A stretch of 64,000 nt of DNA, taken from contig JBHYGA010000001.1 in assembly GCA_051859245.1 (NCBI GenBank), positions 1,629,722 to 1,693,721 of the forward strand, given 5' to 3'. Made by a program: the position numbers and the translations under genes. The notes under the pieces were generated by a model that saw only the letters and a program-made list of their open reading frames with translations, was not told where the DNA came from and did not search any database. Position 1 is the stretch's first letter, and every line of letters begins with the position of its first letter. Positions 2 to 54,275 of this stretch are shown here, piece after piece. Source of the DNA: Gemmatimonadaceae bacterium (lineage in GTDB: Bacteria > Gemmatimonadota > Gemmatimonadetes > Gemmatimonadales > Gemmatimonadaceae).

Positions 2-484
2 CTCGATGCCGGCACGGAAAGCCCGCAGGAACTGGTAGACGGGTTGCTCGCCCTTGTTGGCGATGACATGCAGGCGCAGCGTTGTTCGCTCATGCTCATC
101 GCGCCAGAGCCGGATCATTTATACCTCGCAGCCGGGCGCGGGCTCGCGCCGCACGTGACGCTCGGCTTGCGCACGCGCATCGGTGAAGGTGTCTCGGGCC
201 GCGTAGCGGCGGCTCGGGAACCGCTGCTGGTACAAGATGTTTCACAAGCCGACCGACACCCGTTGCTGCGCGATCAGTATTTTACGACTGGCAGCTTTAT
301 CAGCTTTCCCCTTGTGTATCACAACGAGCTTGTTGGTGTTGTGAACCTGACCAATCGCGCCAAGCTTGGTGTGTATTCAGAGGAAGACGTGGAACGTGTG
401 CGAATTCTGGCGCTTGTGATTTCGCTGGTGGCGTGGAACGCGCAGCTCGCGGATCGACTCGTCGTGGCACTCAATGCCGATTGA
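2..484 (+). CDS. GAF domain-containing protein, 5'-partial (frame open to window edge)
   Basis: GAF-like motifs RCSLML, IGEGVSGRVAAAREPLLV and SFISFPLVYHNELVGVVNLTN; no stop in frame back to position 2. Confidence 0.8.
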   Translation, partial: LDAGTESPQELVDGLLALVGDDMQAQRCSLMLIAPEPDHLYLAAGRGLAPHVTLGLRTRIGEGVSGRVAAAREPLLVQDVSQADRHPLLRDQYFTTGSFISFPLVYHNELVGVVNLTNRAKLGVYSEEDVERVRILALVISLVAWNAQLADRLVVALNAD

Positions 485-1529
485 GCCCGGATCGCCGGAC
501 GCGCTCCGGCTGGCAATACGTCGTCTCGCGAGCGGCGAATCACTCGATGCCGATACGATCACTGGAGCCTTTGATGTCATCATGCGCGGCGAAGGCACGC
601 CCGCGCAGGTGGCGGCGCTGCTCATGGCGCTTCGCGTCAAGGGCGAGACAGTAGCGGAAGTTGCGGGTGTCGCGCGAGCGCTGCGTCGTGCGATGATCAC
701 CATTGACGTGCCCGACGCCGCATTTGTCGTGGATACGTGCGGCACCGGTGGCGGGACGCTCACCACGTTCAACATTTCCACCGCGGCGGCGCTCTTGGCT
801 GCCGGCGCAGGCGTGCGTATCGCCAAACATGGCAATCGCTCGTTCACATCGCGCTCCGGCAGTGCTGATGTGCTGGAGGCGCTTGGTGTGGCCATCGATG
901 GTCCACCCGAGGCGATGATTCGCGCGCTGCACGATGCAGGCATCACCTTCATGTTCGCACCGCTGATGCATCCGGCCATGCGGCACGTGGGTCCGGTGCG
1001 GCGTGAGCTCGCGATTCCAACGGTCATGAACATTGTCGGTCCGCTGGCCAATCCGGCGCGCGCGGGCCGGCAGGTGGTGGGCGTAGCAGATCGGGCGCGA
1101 CTGCCTCTGATCGCCGGTGCGTTGGCGGCGCTGGGCAGTGAGCGGGCGCTCGTGGTGCACGGCGAGCCCGGCATGGATGAAATTTCGCCGCTCGGCAACA
1201 CCACGGTGCTCGAAGTCACCGCGGAAGGCGTCCGCGAGTGGACAATCGACCCTGAATGGTCAGGCGTGCGAGGCGTGCGCGCGGAAGACCTGGCGGGCGG
1301 TGAGCCGGCCGAGAACGCGGCAGTGATTGAGGCCGTGCTGCGGGGCGAGGGTCCGCCAGCTGCGGAGGCCGCCGTGGTGCTCAACGCGGCGGCGGCGATC
1401 TACGTGTCTGGCACGCGCGAGAGCTATCAGGTTGCCATTGCGCATGCCCGCGAAGCGTTGCGCGATGGCGCAGGCTTGCGGGCATTGGCGAAGCTCCGCG
1501 GGTCGTTCGGACCGCCGCGCCCGGCGTAA
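474..1529 (+). CDS. trpD: Anthranilate phosphoribosyltransferase
   Basis: DTCGTGG, FNISTAAA, KHGNRSFTSRSGSADVLEALG and DEIS motifs. Confidence 0.97.
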   Translation: MPIEPGSPDALRLAIRRLASGESLDADTITGAFDVIMRGEGTPAQVAALLMALRVKGETVAEVAGVARALRRAMITIDVPDAAFVVDTCGTGGGTLTTFNISTAAALLAAGAGVRIAKHGNRSFTSRSGSADVLEALGVAIDGPPEAMIRALHDAGITFMFAPLMHPAMRHVGPVRRELAIPTVMNIVGPLANPARAGRQVVGVADRARLPLIAGALAALGSERALVVHGEPGMDEISPLGNTTVLEVTAEGVREWTIDPEWSGVRGVRAEDLAGGEPAENAAVIEAVLRGEGPPAAEAAVVLNAAAAIYVSGTRESYQVAIAHAREALRDGAGLRALAKLRGSFGPPRPA

Positions 1530-1546
1530 CCGGGCGACGGCGGTTT
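1511..1546. terminator. GC-rich hairpin between convergent trpD and lexA, probable terminator
   Basis: ACCGCCGCGCCCGG-CGTAA-CCGGGCG(A)CGGCGGT followed by a short T run. Confidence 0.55.
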
Positions 1547-1554
1547 GGTACTGC

Positions 1555-2163
1555 TTAGTACCGGCGCAACACGCCAACCACGATGCCCTGAATGCGCACG
1601 TCGTCTTCGTGCACAATGAGCGGGGCCATGGTTTCATTGGCTGGCTGCAGCCGAATGCGACCATCTCGTTCACGGAAATACCGTTTGACAGTGGCGGCGG
1701 CGCCGTCGAGCAACGCGATGACCATTTCGCCGTTATCGGCGGAATGACGCTCATTGACCACCACATAGTCACCATCTTCGATGTGGTCTTCGATCATGGA
1801 TTCGCCGCGAACTCGCAGCACGTAGTGACTGCCATTGCGACGCAGGAACCCGTCTGGCACCGCAATGCTCTCGTTGTGCGACAACGCTTCAATGGGCGAC
1901 CCGGCCGCCACCAGCCCCAAGAGCGGCAACTCAACGGACCGCTGAAAAATGTCGCTCGGCAGAATCTCGATGGCCCGACTCTCATTGTACGAGCGCTTGA
2001 TGTAGCCTTTGCGCTCGAGATTCGTGAGGTGCTCGTGAACCGTGGCGAGCGAGTTATAGTTGAACCTGGAGGCGATCTCCTCGAAGCTCGGCGCGTAACC
2101 GTTGTCTTCGGCGTACGACGTGAGGAAACTCAGGATCTCGCGTTGGCGCTTGGTAAGCGGCAT
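1555..2163 (-). CDS. lexA: SOS repressor LexA
   Basis: MPLTKRQREIL wHTH start, VAAG cleavage site, VRGESM (Ser) and ATVKR (Lys) catalytic motifs; GGAG SD upstream of ATG 2163. Confidence 0.97.
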   Translation of the reverse strand: MPLTKRQREILSFLTSYAEDNGYAPSFEEIASRFNYNSLATVHEHLTNLERKGYIKRSYNESRAIEILPSDIFQRSVELPLLGLVAAGSPIEALSHNESIAVPDGFLRRNGSHYVLRVRGESMIEDHIEDGDYVVVNERHSADNGEMVIALLDGAAATVKRYFRERDGRIRLQPANETMAPLIVHEDDVRIQGIVVGVLRRY

Positions 2164-2205
2164 GGCGGACTCCACAAGTGGGTGGGTACAGCGGTGGCGC
2201 CGAAG

Positions 2206-2263
2206 CAGAATTGCTCCCGAATACTTTCCGAAACAAGCTAACCGAACAGGGGCCGAAGTGCAA
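2206..2263 (-). promoter_or_regulatory. Predicted lexA sigma70 promoter overlapped by direct-repeat operator candidates
   Basis: Minus strand TTGCAC (2263-2258), 17 bp spacer, TAGCTT (2240-2235); CCGAA pairs at 2217/2228 and 2242/2253 (11 bp period). Confidence 0.7.
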
Positions 2264-3109
2264 GCAGTTGATGGACTCCGAGGATTAGATCCCAATCGCG
2301 CCGACGTCTGGACACCACCCACCGGAACGCTTGGACGACTCACCGATGCCGCGCATGCGCGCGCCGCACGGGTGGTTCACACCCTGCCGGCGCTCAAATC
2401 GCAGTGCGCGGATCTGCCGGCGCCGCCCTCATTCGAGACGGCGCTGCGCCGCGAAACGCTGGCCATCATCGCCGAAATCAAGCGTGCGTCCCCGTCCAAA
2501 GGACACATCGCGCCGGGACTCAACGCCCGCGAACAGGCCGAGGCGTACGAGCGCGGTGGCGCCGCGGCGATTTCTGTCTTGACCGAGCCCGATGAGTTCG
2601 GGGGCTCGCTCGACGATCTGCGTGAGGTGGCGCGTCATGTCGCGCTGCCCGTGCTGCGCAAGGATTTCATCGTGCACGCGGTGCAGATCTGGGAAGCACG
2701 CGCGGCGGGCGCGGCCGCCGTGCTGTTGATCGCGCGATCGCTCTCACCGGACGCGTTGCCCGCCCTGTACCAGGCATCCCGTGCAGCCGGGTTGGATGTG
2801 CTCGTCGAGGTCCGTGACGCCCGAGAGATGCAGCGAGCCATCGATGTTGGGGCGCGCGTGATTGGCGTGAACAACCGCAATCTGGAAACGCTGGTGATTG
2901 ATCCCGCAACCGCTCCGCAGCTCATGCATCTGGTACCGCCAGATCGCATTGCCGTGGCCGAGAGTGGTATGGCATCGGTGAACGACGCAACGGCGGCGCA
3001 ACAGGCCGGTGCAGACGCACTGCTCATCGGGTCGGCGATCTCCGCGGCGACCGATCCGGCGCATGCTGTGGCTGCGTTTGCGCAACTCACGCGCGTGGCG
3101 CGTGCCTGA
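2258..3109 (+). CDS. trpC: Indole-3-glycerol phosphate synthase
   Basis: IAEIKRASPSKG, ISVLTEP, LRKDFI, IGVNNRNL and AESG motifs; GTG 2258 start is inferred. Confidence 0.95.
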   Translation: MQAVDGLRGLDPNRADVWTPPTGTLGRLTDAAHARAARVVHTLPALKSQCADLPAPPSFETALRRETLAIIAEIKRASPSKGHIAPGLNAREQAEAYERGGAAAISVLTEPDEFGGSLDDLREVARHVALPVLRKDFIVHAVQIWEARAAGAAAVLLIARSLSPDALPALYQASRAAGLDVLVEVRDAREMQRAIDVGARVIGVNNRNLETLVIDPATAPQLMHLVPPDRIAVAESGMASVNDATAAQQAGADALLIGSAISAATDPAHAVAAFAQLTRVARA

Positions 3110-3776
3110 CGCCGCATCGCACGTGCAAGCGCCACGCATCAAGTTCTGCGGACTCACGAAACAGACGGACGCGCAGTACGCCGCTGAACTCGGCGCCGCG
3201 TTCGTAGGCGGTATTCGCGCCGGTGGTCCGCGCCTGCTCGGCACCGACGCCTGGCGCGACACCATGCGCGGATTGCCGGCGAACGTGTTGCGCGTTGCGG
3301 TACTTGGCGCGTTGTCGCCCGAAGAGGTGATGGCAGAAGTCGAGTCACTCGGCGCGGACATCGCACAGTTGCACGGTGATCCCGTCGCGACTGAAGTGGC
3401 GCTTCTTGCAAAGAGCGGCGTGCGCGTATGGCCGGTGCTTCGCGTGTGCGGCCACGAGCTGCCGCGCGAGGCCTGGGCGCTGGCGGCGCACGCCGACGCG
3501 CTTGTGCTCGACGCGCTCGTGCAGGGGCAACTTGGTGGCACGGGTGTCGCGCTGAACTGGCAGGCACTGCGCGAGAGCGTGGAACGTTGGCGACACGAGT
3601 TCCCGAACGTACAACTCGTGTTGGCGGGCGGGCTGAATGCGGACAATGTCGCGCACGCCATTCAACTGCTTGCGCCCGATGTCGTCGACGTATCTTCAGG
3701 AGTGGAAATCGCACCGGGGATCAAGGATCCCGAGCGGATGCGAGCCTTTGCAGACGCAGTTCGAGGAAGTCATTGA
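3102..3776 (+). CDS. trpF: Phosphoribosylanthranilate isomerase
   Basis: [24 protein letters not shown] and DVSSGVE motifs. Confidence 0.95.
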
Positions 3777-4981
3777 TGGAACCCACGGGAGCAGTACTGG
3801 CGGAGCGGGACGGAGACCGGTTTGGCGGATTCGGCGGACGGTACGTGCCGGAAACGCTGGTCCCGGCGCTCGATGCACTTGATGCCGAGTTCGATGCGGC
3901 GATGGTTGATCCGGCATTCCTCGCCGAGCTCAACGACATGCTGCGCAACTATGTAGGCCGGCCCACGGCACTGAGCACCGCGCCGCGCCTCTCGGACCTG
4001 GTCGGTGCGCCGGTCTGGCTCAAGCGCGAAGACCTCAATCACACGGGCGCCCACAAGATCAACAATACGGTGGGGCAGGCACTGCTGGCGCGTCGCATGG
4101 GAAAGACCCGGATCATCGCGGAAACGGGCGCCGGACAGCATGGCGTGGCCACCGCGACGATTTGTGCCCGGTTCGGGTTGGAGTGCGTCGTATATATGGG
4201 CGAGGAAGACATGCGACGGCAGTCGCTGAATGTGTTCCGCATGCGGCTCATGGGAGCGACGGTTATTCCCGTGACCGCCGGCACCCGCACTCTCAAGGAT
4301 GCAACCAGCGAGGCCATTCGTGATTGGGTCACCAATGTTAACGAAAGCCACTACATCATCGGCTCGGTCGTCGGACCAGCGCCGTATCCGCGTATGGTGC
4401 GCGACTTCCAGCGCGTGATCAGTCGCGAGGCACGTGCGCAGATGCTTGAGCGGGCCGGGCGGTTGCCCCGGACCGTGGTCGCGTGCGTTGGTGGCGGGTC
4501 CAACGCCATGGGCGCGTTTGCGGACTTTGTGAACGATGCCGATGTCGAGCTCGTGGGTGTGGAAGCGGCCGGTGAGGGGTTGGGTACGGATCGCCACTCG
4601 GCATCGCTGACCAAAGGCACACCAGGTGTGTTGCACGGCGCGTTGAGCTACCTGCTGCAGGACGAAGCCGGTCAGGTGCATCCGGCGCACTCCATTTCCG
4701 CCGGCCTCGACTATCCAGGCGTAGGTCCTGAGCACGCATTCCTCAAAGACAGCGGGCGCGCGGAGTACGTGAGTGTCACCGATGCGGAAGCCCTCTCGGG
4801 TGTCTCCGTGTTGAGTCGCCTCGAAGGCATCATTCCCGCGCTGGAGACCGCACACGCCGTCGCGTGGATTGTGCGGGAGAAGGGACGGTGGGCGGCAGAC
4901 GAACCCGTACTGCTCTGCGTGAGTGGTCGCGGCGACAAGGATGTCGGCACCATGACCGAACACTTGTTGCCCACTTTGTGA
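3776..4981 (+). CDS. trpB: Tryptophan synthase beta chain
   Basis: [15 protein letters not shown] (PLP Lys), [17 protein letters not shown] and SGRGDKD motifs. Confidence 0.98.
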
Positions 4982-52727: not shown

Positions 52728-54275
52728 ATGAAACGCGAGATTCTTGTCAACGCGAACCCACGGGAAACCCGGGTCGCAATCCTCGAGGACGACCTCCTCG
52801 TTGAACTGCTGGTCGACCGGCCCGATGCTCGGCGCATGGTTGGCGATGTCTACCTTGGCAAGGTCGAGGCGGTGCTCCCTGGTATTCAGGCCGCCTTCGT
52901 AAACATTGGAACGGATAAGGCCGCGTTTCTTCACGCGTCCGACATTGTCGTCCCCGACGATGACGCCGATCCGGACGATGACGATGAAGAAGATGACGCG
53001 CCCAGCGGTGGACGTCGTCCCAAAAAAGAACTGCCCCCGATTCAGGACGTGCTGAAGCGGGGACAAGACATCATCGTCCAGGTCTCCAAGGAACCGATCA
53101 GTACCAAGGGGCCGCGCGTTACCGCGCAGGTTTCGCTTGCCGGTCGCTTTCTCGTGTACATGCCATTCGCGAGCCGAGTCGGCGTGAGCCGGAAGATCAG
53201 TGAACGCAGTGAGCGGCAGCGGTTGCGGCAAATGCTCACGGAAATGTTGCCCGCCGATTCGGGCGGCGTCATTGTGCGCACGGTCAGTGAAGACGCTACG
53301 CCGGAAGTGTTTGAGCGCGAGTTGAACTCGCTCATTCAGGCGTGGAAACGCATCAAGCGCAAGAATCAGTTCTTGCGCGCGCCGGCGCTGATTCACCGTG
53401 AAACGAACGTCACGCGCGGCCTCGTGCGCGATGTCTTCTCGAGCAAGGTTGACGCCCTGACCGTCGACTCGCGTCAGGTGTTCAACGAGATCGTGGAGTA
53501 CCTCGGCGGTATCGCGCCCGATCTGGTGGATCGCGTGCGCATGTACGAAGAGCCGGTGCCGTTGTTCGACAAGTTCGACGTTGAAAAAGAGATTCGGGAT
53601 CTCTTCAAGCGGCGTTGTGATCTGCCAAGCGGTGGCTATCTCATTATCGAACAAACCGAAGCGCTCGTTTCCATTGACGTGAACTCGGGTCGCTACACGG
53701 GCAAGAAGGATCCCGAAAAAACGATCTACCGCACCAACAGCGAATCGGCCAAGGAAATCGCGCGTCAGCTCCGTCTGCGTGATGTGGGCGGCATCATTGT
53801 GTGCGACTTCATCGACATGGAGACGCAGGCAAATCGGGATCGTGTGTTGCAGGAATTGCGCACGCATCTCGGACGCGACCGCGCACGCACCAAAGCGTTT
53901 GCCGTGAGCGAGCTCGGCTTGATTGAAATGACACGTCAGCGCGTGCGTCAAAGTCACTGGCAGAGCATGACGGAGTCGTGCCCCACGTGCGCCGGCACCG
54001 GACGCGTGTTCACGCCCGAAACGATTGTGCGGCGGCTGGAGCGAGCGGTCACCCGAATGGGCGCCGAAGGCCGTAAGGAAGCCATGCTGCTGCGGATGCA
54101 TCCGGATATTGCGCTCCACGTGCTGGAAGAGGAGCGCGACCTGCTCAAGCGCCTGGAAAAGGTGGCCGGTTTCTCAGTAGAAATGCGGGACGACCCGCTG
54201 CTCAAGCCCGACGAGTACCGTCTGGTCGTCAAGGGCGCGGAGCGTGATGTGACCCAGCAGTACGCGTTGGCTTAG
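52728..54275 (+). CDS. Ribonuclease E/G family (RNase G-sized)
   Basis: S1 domain (GDVYLGKVEAVLPGIQAAFV), SIDVNSG, QLRLRDVGGIIVCDFIDM and CPTCAGTG motifs. Confidence 0.95.
   Translation: MKREILVNANPRETRVAILEDDLLVELLVDRPDARRMVGDVYLGKVEAVLPGIQAAFVNIGTDKAAFLHASDIVVPDDDADPDDDDEEDDAPSGGRRPKKELPPIQDVLKRGQDIIVQVSKEPISTKGPRVTAQVSLAGRFLVYMPFASRVGVSRKISERSERQRLRQMLTEMLPADSGGVIVRTVSEDATPEVFERELNSLIQAWKRIKRKNQFLRAPALIHRETNVTRGLVRDVFSSKVDALTVDSRQVFNEIVEYLGGIAPDLVDRVRMYEEPVPLFDKFDVEKEIRDLFKRRCDLPSGGYLIIEQTEALVSIDVNSGRYTGKKDPEKTIYRTNSESAKEIARQLRLRDVGGIIVCDFIDMETQANRDRVLQELRTHLGRDRARTKAFAVSELGLIEMTRQRVRQSHWQSMTESCPTCAGTGRVFTPETIVRRLERAVTRMGAEGRKEAMLLRMHPDIALHVLEEERDLLKRLEKVAGFSVEMRDDPLLKPDEYRLVVKGAERDVTQQYALA

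Follow-up and report, generated by a model that had tools for sequence, protein, structure and literature searches.

A candidate head-to-tail LexA operator, TTCGG-N4-T-N-TTCGG, on the lexA promoter of Gemmatimonadetes

LexA boxes described so far include both palindromes and direct repeats. According to the available excerpts of the papers cited here, the Firmicute box GAAC-N4-GTTC and the E. coli box CTGT-N8-ACAG are palindromic (PMC3323433), and alphaproteobacterial LexA uses GTTC-N7-GTTC (PMC8565304, PMC3323433). A direct-repeat LexA motif was published for Patescibacteria in 2017 (Sanchez-Osuna, Barbe, Erill, PMID 28618189, cited in PMC7739468), and another direct repeat, TTACACATATTTTWTACATA, was found in Balneolaeota by comparative genomics and validated by EMSA (PMC7739468). 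Direct-repeat recognition by LexA is described, in the excerpt of the latter paper, as having evolved independently several times. In E. coli LexA, Glu45 is a DNA-contacting residue (PMC3091678), and the exchange E45K abolished binding to the recA box (bioRxiv 2020.07.14.201889). A literature search, with subscription papers, regulon databases and bioRxiv supplements outside its scope, returned no LexA box described for Gemmatimonadota. The supplement of PMC8565304 gave no Gemmatimonad row by term, and the available part of the validated-LexA table lists none.

The window analysed here is the whole stretch of 64,000 nucleotides from the genome of a Gemmatimonadaceae bacterium. Its lexA gene (1555..2163, minus strand) lies antisense between trpD and trpC-trpF-trpB, inside the trp operon (474-4981), and no other gene of this genome matches the lexA family model. 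The product, of 202 aa, is a canonical LexA having the DNA-binding and S24 domains, the Ala87-Gly88 cleavage site and the Ser122/Lys160 dyad, all intact. A GGAG word at 2170..2173 (minus strand) is, from its sequence, the likely lexA ribosome-binding site. Further upstream, four CCGAA words begin at 2217, 2228, 2242 and 2253 of the forward strand and form, on the minus strand, two TTCGG-N6-TTCGG boxes that lie upstream of lexA at distances of 94 and 69 bases. Operator 1 (2242..2257, minus strand) is TTCGG-ccccTg-TTCGG, with a conserved inner T at 2248, and occupies 16 of the 17 spacer bases between the predicted -35 element TTGCAC (2258..2263, minus strand) and the predicted -10 element TAGCTT (2235..2240, minus strand). 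Operator 2 (2217..2232, minus strand) is TTCGG-aaagTa-TTCGG, with the inner T at 2223; it starts two bases past TAGCTT and extends over the positions 6-8 bases downstream of the -10 element, where transcription would be expected to start. The earlier note had given the two repeat pairs, a CAGAA word at 2206 and this minus-strand promoter with its filled spacer and covered start site, and all of these are found in the sequence as it described them.

Only 6 of the 12 promoter bases agree with the sigma-70 consensus, and a consensus scan did not report this promoter. It is predicted, despite the poor match, because its elements are conserved: operator 1 is flanked by TTG in 90/90 and by TA-N3-T in 88/90 of the two-box upstream regions. 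One terminator-like stem was found, at 2030-2051, at chance level. The CAGAA word (2206..2210, plus strand), read in the earlier note as a degenerate half-site, does stand in register with operator 2, but it is not conserved, a third half-site at this position being exact in 0/92 and within one mismatch in 6/92 two-box regions; it is probably not a required part of the operator. One more CCGAA (2200..2204, plus strand) is out of register, is present in 1/92 regions, and is probably there by chance.

The exact TTCGG-N6-TTCGG box stands upstream of all 139 Gemmatimonadetes lexA genes examined. A first sample of 110 loci (the best 30 of 61 related genomes and the best 80 of 422 genome matches) contained 98 distinct upstream regions, each with at least one exact box and 92 with two or more. 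The box was likewise exact at 20/20 loci of two other families of the order (20 of 24 such genomes), at 8/8 loci of other orders (8 of 19 listed) and in 13/13 further Gemmatimonadetes genomes; these counts are not independent tests, because the genomes are kin. The unpublished genome G021 supplied a single lexA region (L017) and a single imuA region (L470), and none of the conclusions depends on that genome alone. The spacer and flanks of the box vary, apart from a T that stands two bases ahead of the second half-site and is present in 99% of 90 operator 1 and 80% of 90 operator 2 sites, which gives the consensus TTCGG-N4-T-N-TTCGG. The distance between the two boxes ranges from 22 to 39 bases and is mostly 25-27 or 36-37.

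In the window's own genome, exact boxes precede lexA (two), recA, uvrB, imuA, imuB, dnaE2, a GIY-YIG cho-like gene and a DinB-family gene, those of uvrB and the DinB-family gene being reversed in orientation. This set came out of the box scan itself, in which an exact box lay upstream of 15 of the 3949 genes called by a rough gene finder. Among nine genes chosen beforehand, namely two uvrA genes, ssb, dinB, recN, ruvA, uvrC, a second cho-like gene and a second WYL gene, none had a box within one mismatch. Thus, among the SOS genes where the earlier note proposed to look for the motif, lexA, recA, imuA and dnaE2 carry it in this genome, and uvrA and ssb do not, even at one mismatch.

Across the class, recA has 18 exact and 5 one-mismatch boxes at 24 loci, as against 28 of 600 control windows; in the recA boxes of family f1, the first half-site has T, C or A as its fifth base. 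The earlier note had named absence of the motif from orthologous lexA or recA promoters as grounds for giving up its reading, and at both genes the motif is present. An exact box was found at 18/27 imuA loci (26 genomes of the family), and at 1/8 dnaE2 loci of relatives, most of which lack the gene start. A core role for uvrB was rejected, the box being exact at just 3/30 relative loci. Since uvrB is rarely boxed and recA and imuA often are, the conserved core comprises lexA, recA and the mutagenic cassette. Gemmatimonadota, for which the searchable papers hold no SOS box, would thereby gain an operator that can be put to use and a core regulon predicted to comprise lexA, recA, imuA, imuB and dnaE2.

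Several other observations concern the boxed genes. The genes imuA, imuB and dnaE2 are dispersed in this genome (L131, L133, L134; G000 C1 near 252900, 532900 and 556300), and each has an exact box to itself. A 776-aa fused PafBC-like protein with two WYL domains and a WCX domain (L139:766-3093, minus strand) has a one-mismatch box upstream, of the TTCGT form like the recA box, and LexA may control this second damage regulator. Exact boxes also stand upstream of genes without a known role in repair: at L135 (G000 C1 848207) these are a BsuPI-domain gene and an ATP synthase gene 1 neighbour, and at L149 (G000 C7 50642) a small operon with a DUF883 protein. Weaker matrix matches, among them gyrB, hisG and glutamine synthetase, are not counted as members of the regulon. 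The RNA runs X1 and X2 are contigs, and contain 5% of the words. Many relatives (L503-L511) encode a second, divergent LexA-like protein with the helix KSTKTVSE/D, which was not found in the window's genome; the TTCGG box was upstream of 0/9 of these paralogs, one having only 46 bases upstream.

The trp setting brings further signals onto the same DNA. The trpD gene (474..1529, plus strand) ends 25 bases from the lexA stop codon, and trpC, encoding indole-3-glycerol phosphate synthase (2258..3109, plus strand), is followed by trpF and trpB. In the 110 family loci, lexA neighbours trpD in 108 and trpC in 109; trpC lies beside lexA at 14/20 loci of the other families and 5/8 of the other orders, where loci were shorter, and at 0/12 in other classes. 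Read on the opposite strand, the lexA -35 element is GTG CAA, likely the first two codons of trpC. A GTG directly after operator 1, the reverse complement of the -35 element, opens a frame that runs without a stop into trpC in 86/113 distinct loci, over a linker of varying length, and several other loci have an in-frame ATG or TTG inside the operator. The trpC start codon therefore likely overlaps the lexA -35 element, which accounts for part of the conservation of TTGCAC but not for that of the boxes. An AGGGG word within operator 1 (2248..2252, plus strand) is a possible, weak trpC ribosome-binding site; similar words occur in 27/90 operator-1 spacers as against 8/90 operator-2 spacers. A relaxed pattern found no plus-strand trpC promoter in 2151-2345, so that the trpC mRNA likely crosses both operators. 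The arrangement trpD-lexA(reversed)-trpC-trpF-trpB is possibly a non-contiguous operon coupling SOS and tryptophan genes.

Taken with the established SOS pathway, these data point to the boxes on the lexA promoter being LexA operators, through which lexA would repress itself until damage releases it; we put the probability of this at about nine in ten. The earlier note had read the repeats as the LexA operator of the lineage, and that reading is strongly supported by the conservation at lexA, recA and imuA and by the match between box and recognition helix. From the same pathway we infer that a LexA dimer would sit on each box, one blocking the promoter spacer and the other the start site. The two DNA-binding domains would each read one CCGAA half-site, head to tail and, with the 11-bp period, on the same face of the helix. 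Glu44 (codon 2032..2034, minus strand), in the recognition helix S38-L-A-T-V-H-E44-H, aligns with E. coli Glu45 and is the predicted reader of the outer C of CCGAA; relatives with Lys at this position use GCGAA. Upon DNA damage, RecA-dependent self-cleavage of LexA would release lexA, recA and the error-prone repair genes imuA/imuB/dnaE2. More speculatively, of the two domains only the one facing the spacer would read the conserved inner T.

A sister form of the box is found in other classes of Gemmatimonadota, where the lexA promoter carries TTCGC-N6-TTCGC, with TTCGT in some half-sites, between TTG-N3 and TA-N3-T. It was present in 11/11 full-length loci and in one truncated locus, and one further lexA locus had no TTCGC box in its 183 bases upstream. 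One of these genomes has another TTCGC box in front of a dinB polymerase gene just behind lexA. The recA genes of these classes had the TTCGG box in 0/6 cases and no box of the TTCGC type in the 220 bases covered. Their LexA helix is AT(V/A)HKH, as against ATVHEH in Gemmatimonadetes, the differing residue being the counterpart of E. coli Glu45 in the alignment. A contact of Glu with C, or of Lys with G, on the CCGAA strand would be ordinary base-reading chemistry.

A metagenome scan for the promoter-plus-box layout, with the fifth base left free, gave at least 80 loci, 22 with a LexA N-terminus downstream and the other 58 unannotated. Glu-type LexA had G/G at the fifth bases in 8/8 cases; Lys-type LexA (n = 11) had C/C in 10 and T/C in one, with C in the second half-site in all 11. 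The remaining proteins were one with Gln and T/C, one with Val and T/T, and one truncated. The Lys-type proteins cluster with members labelled Acidobacteriota, Nitrospina and Deltaproteobacteria. Among Patescibacteria, Acidobacteriota and Nitrospinota, this helix position is also occupied by Gln, Phe, Tyr, Val and Asp. In a by-eye alignment of half-sites, the outer position is C in the lexA boxes of E. coli, whose LexA has Glu, and varies in those of Bacillus velezensis, whose LexA has Gly. One Glu-type lexA box (L495) has TTCGC as its first half. From these sequences, the fifth box base appears to follow the residue equivalent to Glu45, Glu going with G and Lys with C. In a tree of 49 proteins, built with this residue masked and leaving out six loci without a full LexA, residue and base each need only two changes, with one independent pair on well-supported branches and two on all branches, so that the match cannot reach significance; long branches meet among the Patescibacteria-type rows. 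The correspondence is complete but statistically thin. Three Lys-type genomes held 14 TTCGG sites against 7 for a reversed control, mostly inside reading frames, and the neighbours scanned included no damage genes. The literature search returned no paper stating a residue-base code. In several metagenome loci (L285, L294, L339, L341, L342 and similar), a common leader beginning GGTAGAGGAAACGGG follows the TTCGC box promoter.

The odds seem to us slightly better than even for a broader reading, in which head-to-tail LexA operators of the form TTCG(G/C)-N4-T-N-TTCG(G/C) make up one widespread family, common to Gemmatimonadota, Patescibacteria, Acidobacteriota and Nitrospina, and the box of Gemmatimonadetes represents one of its states. 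One helix residue would set the fifth base, Glu reading C (TTCGG) and Lys reading G (TTCGC), and in Gemmatimonadaceae the same 22 bases would serve as lexA promoter, operator and trpC translation start. If true, the one-residue code would be nature's equivalent of the E. coli E45K mutant, a single origin would underlie several direct-repeat motifs that have been described as invented independently, and the SOS box of an uncultured lineage could be read from its LexA sequence.

Other explanations of the boxes were considered. The window holds three exact copies of CCGAA-N6-CCGAA against 0.13 expected, a count reached in 0/100 shuffles. The third copy (54053-54068) lies within a reading frame, lacks the inner T and is probably due to chance. 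That the copies at lexA, too, are chance repeats of a GC-rich genome would suit the genome-wide picture, in which there is no excess (18 copies at spacer 6 versus 8 to 65 at other spacers from 0 to 15) and about half of the exact copies stand away from damage genes. It is refuted by the presence of the box in every lexA upstream region of the class that was examined, the shuffles also speak against it, and we give it practically no weight: the signal of the TTCGG box is its position, not its number of copies. The word alone does not imply LexA, however, since viral contigs (L152-L215) carry TTCGG arrays at an 11-bp period, some resembling replication-origin iterons, and lexA was near 0/64 of these double-box loci. 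A viral search with Patescibacteria LexA gave no match, and a plasmid search only distant LexA proteins. The box might also be a side effect of signals that overlap there, namely the lexA promoter and the start codon and ribosome-binding site of trpC, or the site of a trp-operon regulator, as lexA lies inside the trp operon and trpC so often begins in frame right after operator 1. This is very improbable and largely refuted by the boxes at recA and imuA; besides, operator 2 lies away from the trpC start, and in the other classes the lexA box persists at loci without any nearby trp gene.

A regulator of damage genes other than LexA, for example a PafBC-like WYL protein, could bind the box, a promoter motif without palindromic symmetry, and act there as an activator. 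The PafBC of mycobacteria turns on damage genes through a non-palindromic promoter motif, according to the available excerpt of PMC6789036, and the fused PafBC-like WYL protein of this genome has its own one-mismatch box. Boxes placed on the promoter spacer and expected start site, and used in both orientations, suit a repressor, however, the fifth base follows a residue of LexA, and the site is most constant at lexA itself; we consider such an activator improbable. LexA operators thus stay the preferred reading, and it is as LexA operators that the boxes are compared with described systems below.

The box of Patescibacteria is the closest. The consensus of Sanchez-Osuna and colleagues from 2017 is probably identical to TTCGG-N6-TTCGG. 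At two Patescibacteria-type lexA loci, L268 and L311, the identical box was found in the promoter spacer, together with the helix Glu; the L268 protein is labelled Patescibacteria and has its box 507 bp upstream with one ORF between, and that of L311 is 57% identical to a protein labelled Nealsonbacteria and has its box directly upstream. These two loci and a truncated low-GC locus, L271, were found by scanning for the motif itself and so give no rate. The earlier note had read the box as the operator of this lineage and as a variant that it did not recognise as described. The search found no description from Gemmatimonadota, but a reading as undescribed and lineage-specific is weakened by the identical box at L268 and L311, of a group for which a direct-repeat LexA motif has been published. 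Patescibacteria-type lexA differs in belonging to another phylum and in a LexA only 41-43% identical, while two boxes and the trp-operon setting are usual in Gemmatimonadetes. Among proteins of this type, L311, P0057, P0060, P0075 and P0083 have 430-820 aa and some of the clusters are labelled DNA methyltransferase, which suggests LexA-methylase fusions; L311 appears nearly leaderless, its start being about 8 bases below the -10 element.

The LexA box of Acidobacterium capsulatum, said to have been given by Mazon et al. in 2006 with the consensus GTTC-N7-GTTC, is likewise an 11-bp direct repeat. The Acidobacteriota-labelled loci found here share the TTCG-N5-T-N-TTCG core and the promoter position, but have TTCGC with Lys, not TTCGG with Glu. 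The alphaproteobacterial box has the same 11-bp direct-repeat period and the shared TTC; its leading G is not kept here, GTTC-N7-GTTC fitting 1/90 operator-1 and 2/90 operator-2 sites, whereas the trailing GG is invariant here. The Firmicute and E. coli boxes are inverted repeats and fit 0/98 and 2/98 upstream regions, respectively; by eye, the half-sites align as CCGAA-n-A here, n-CGAAC in Bacillus and CTGTA-T-A in E. coli (loci L386, L387). The Balneolaeota box is also a direct repeat from a little-studied phylum, but its sequence is unrelated to that of Gemmatimonadetes. The box alone is a modest result, because LexA boxes, including direct-repeat ones, are well known and this sequence is probably in print for Patescibacteria. 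More useful is the correspondence of Glu and Lys with the fifth base, since the question of independent origins becomes testable given a shared core and a one-residue switch.
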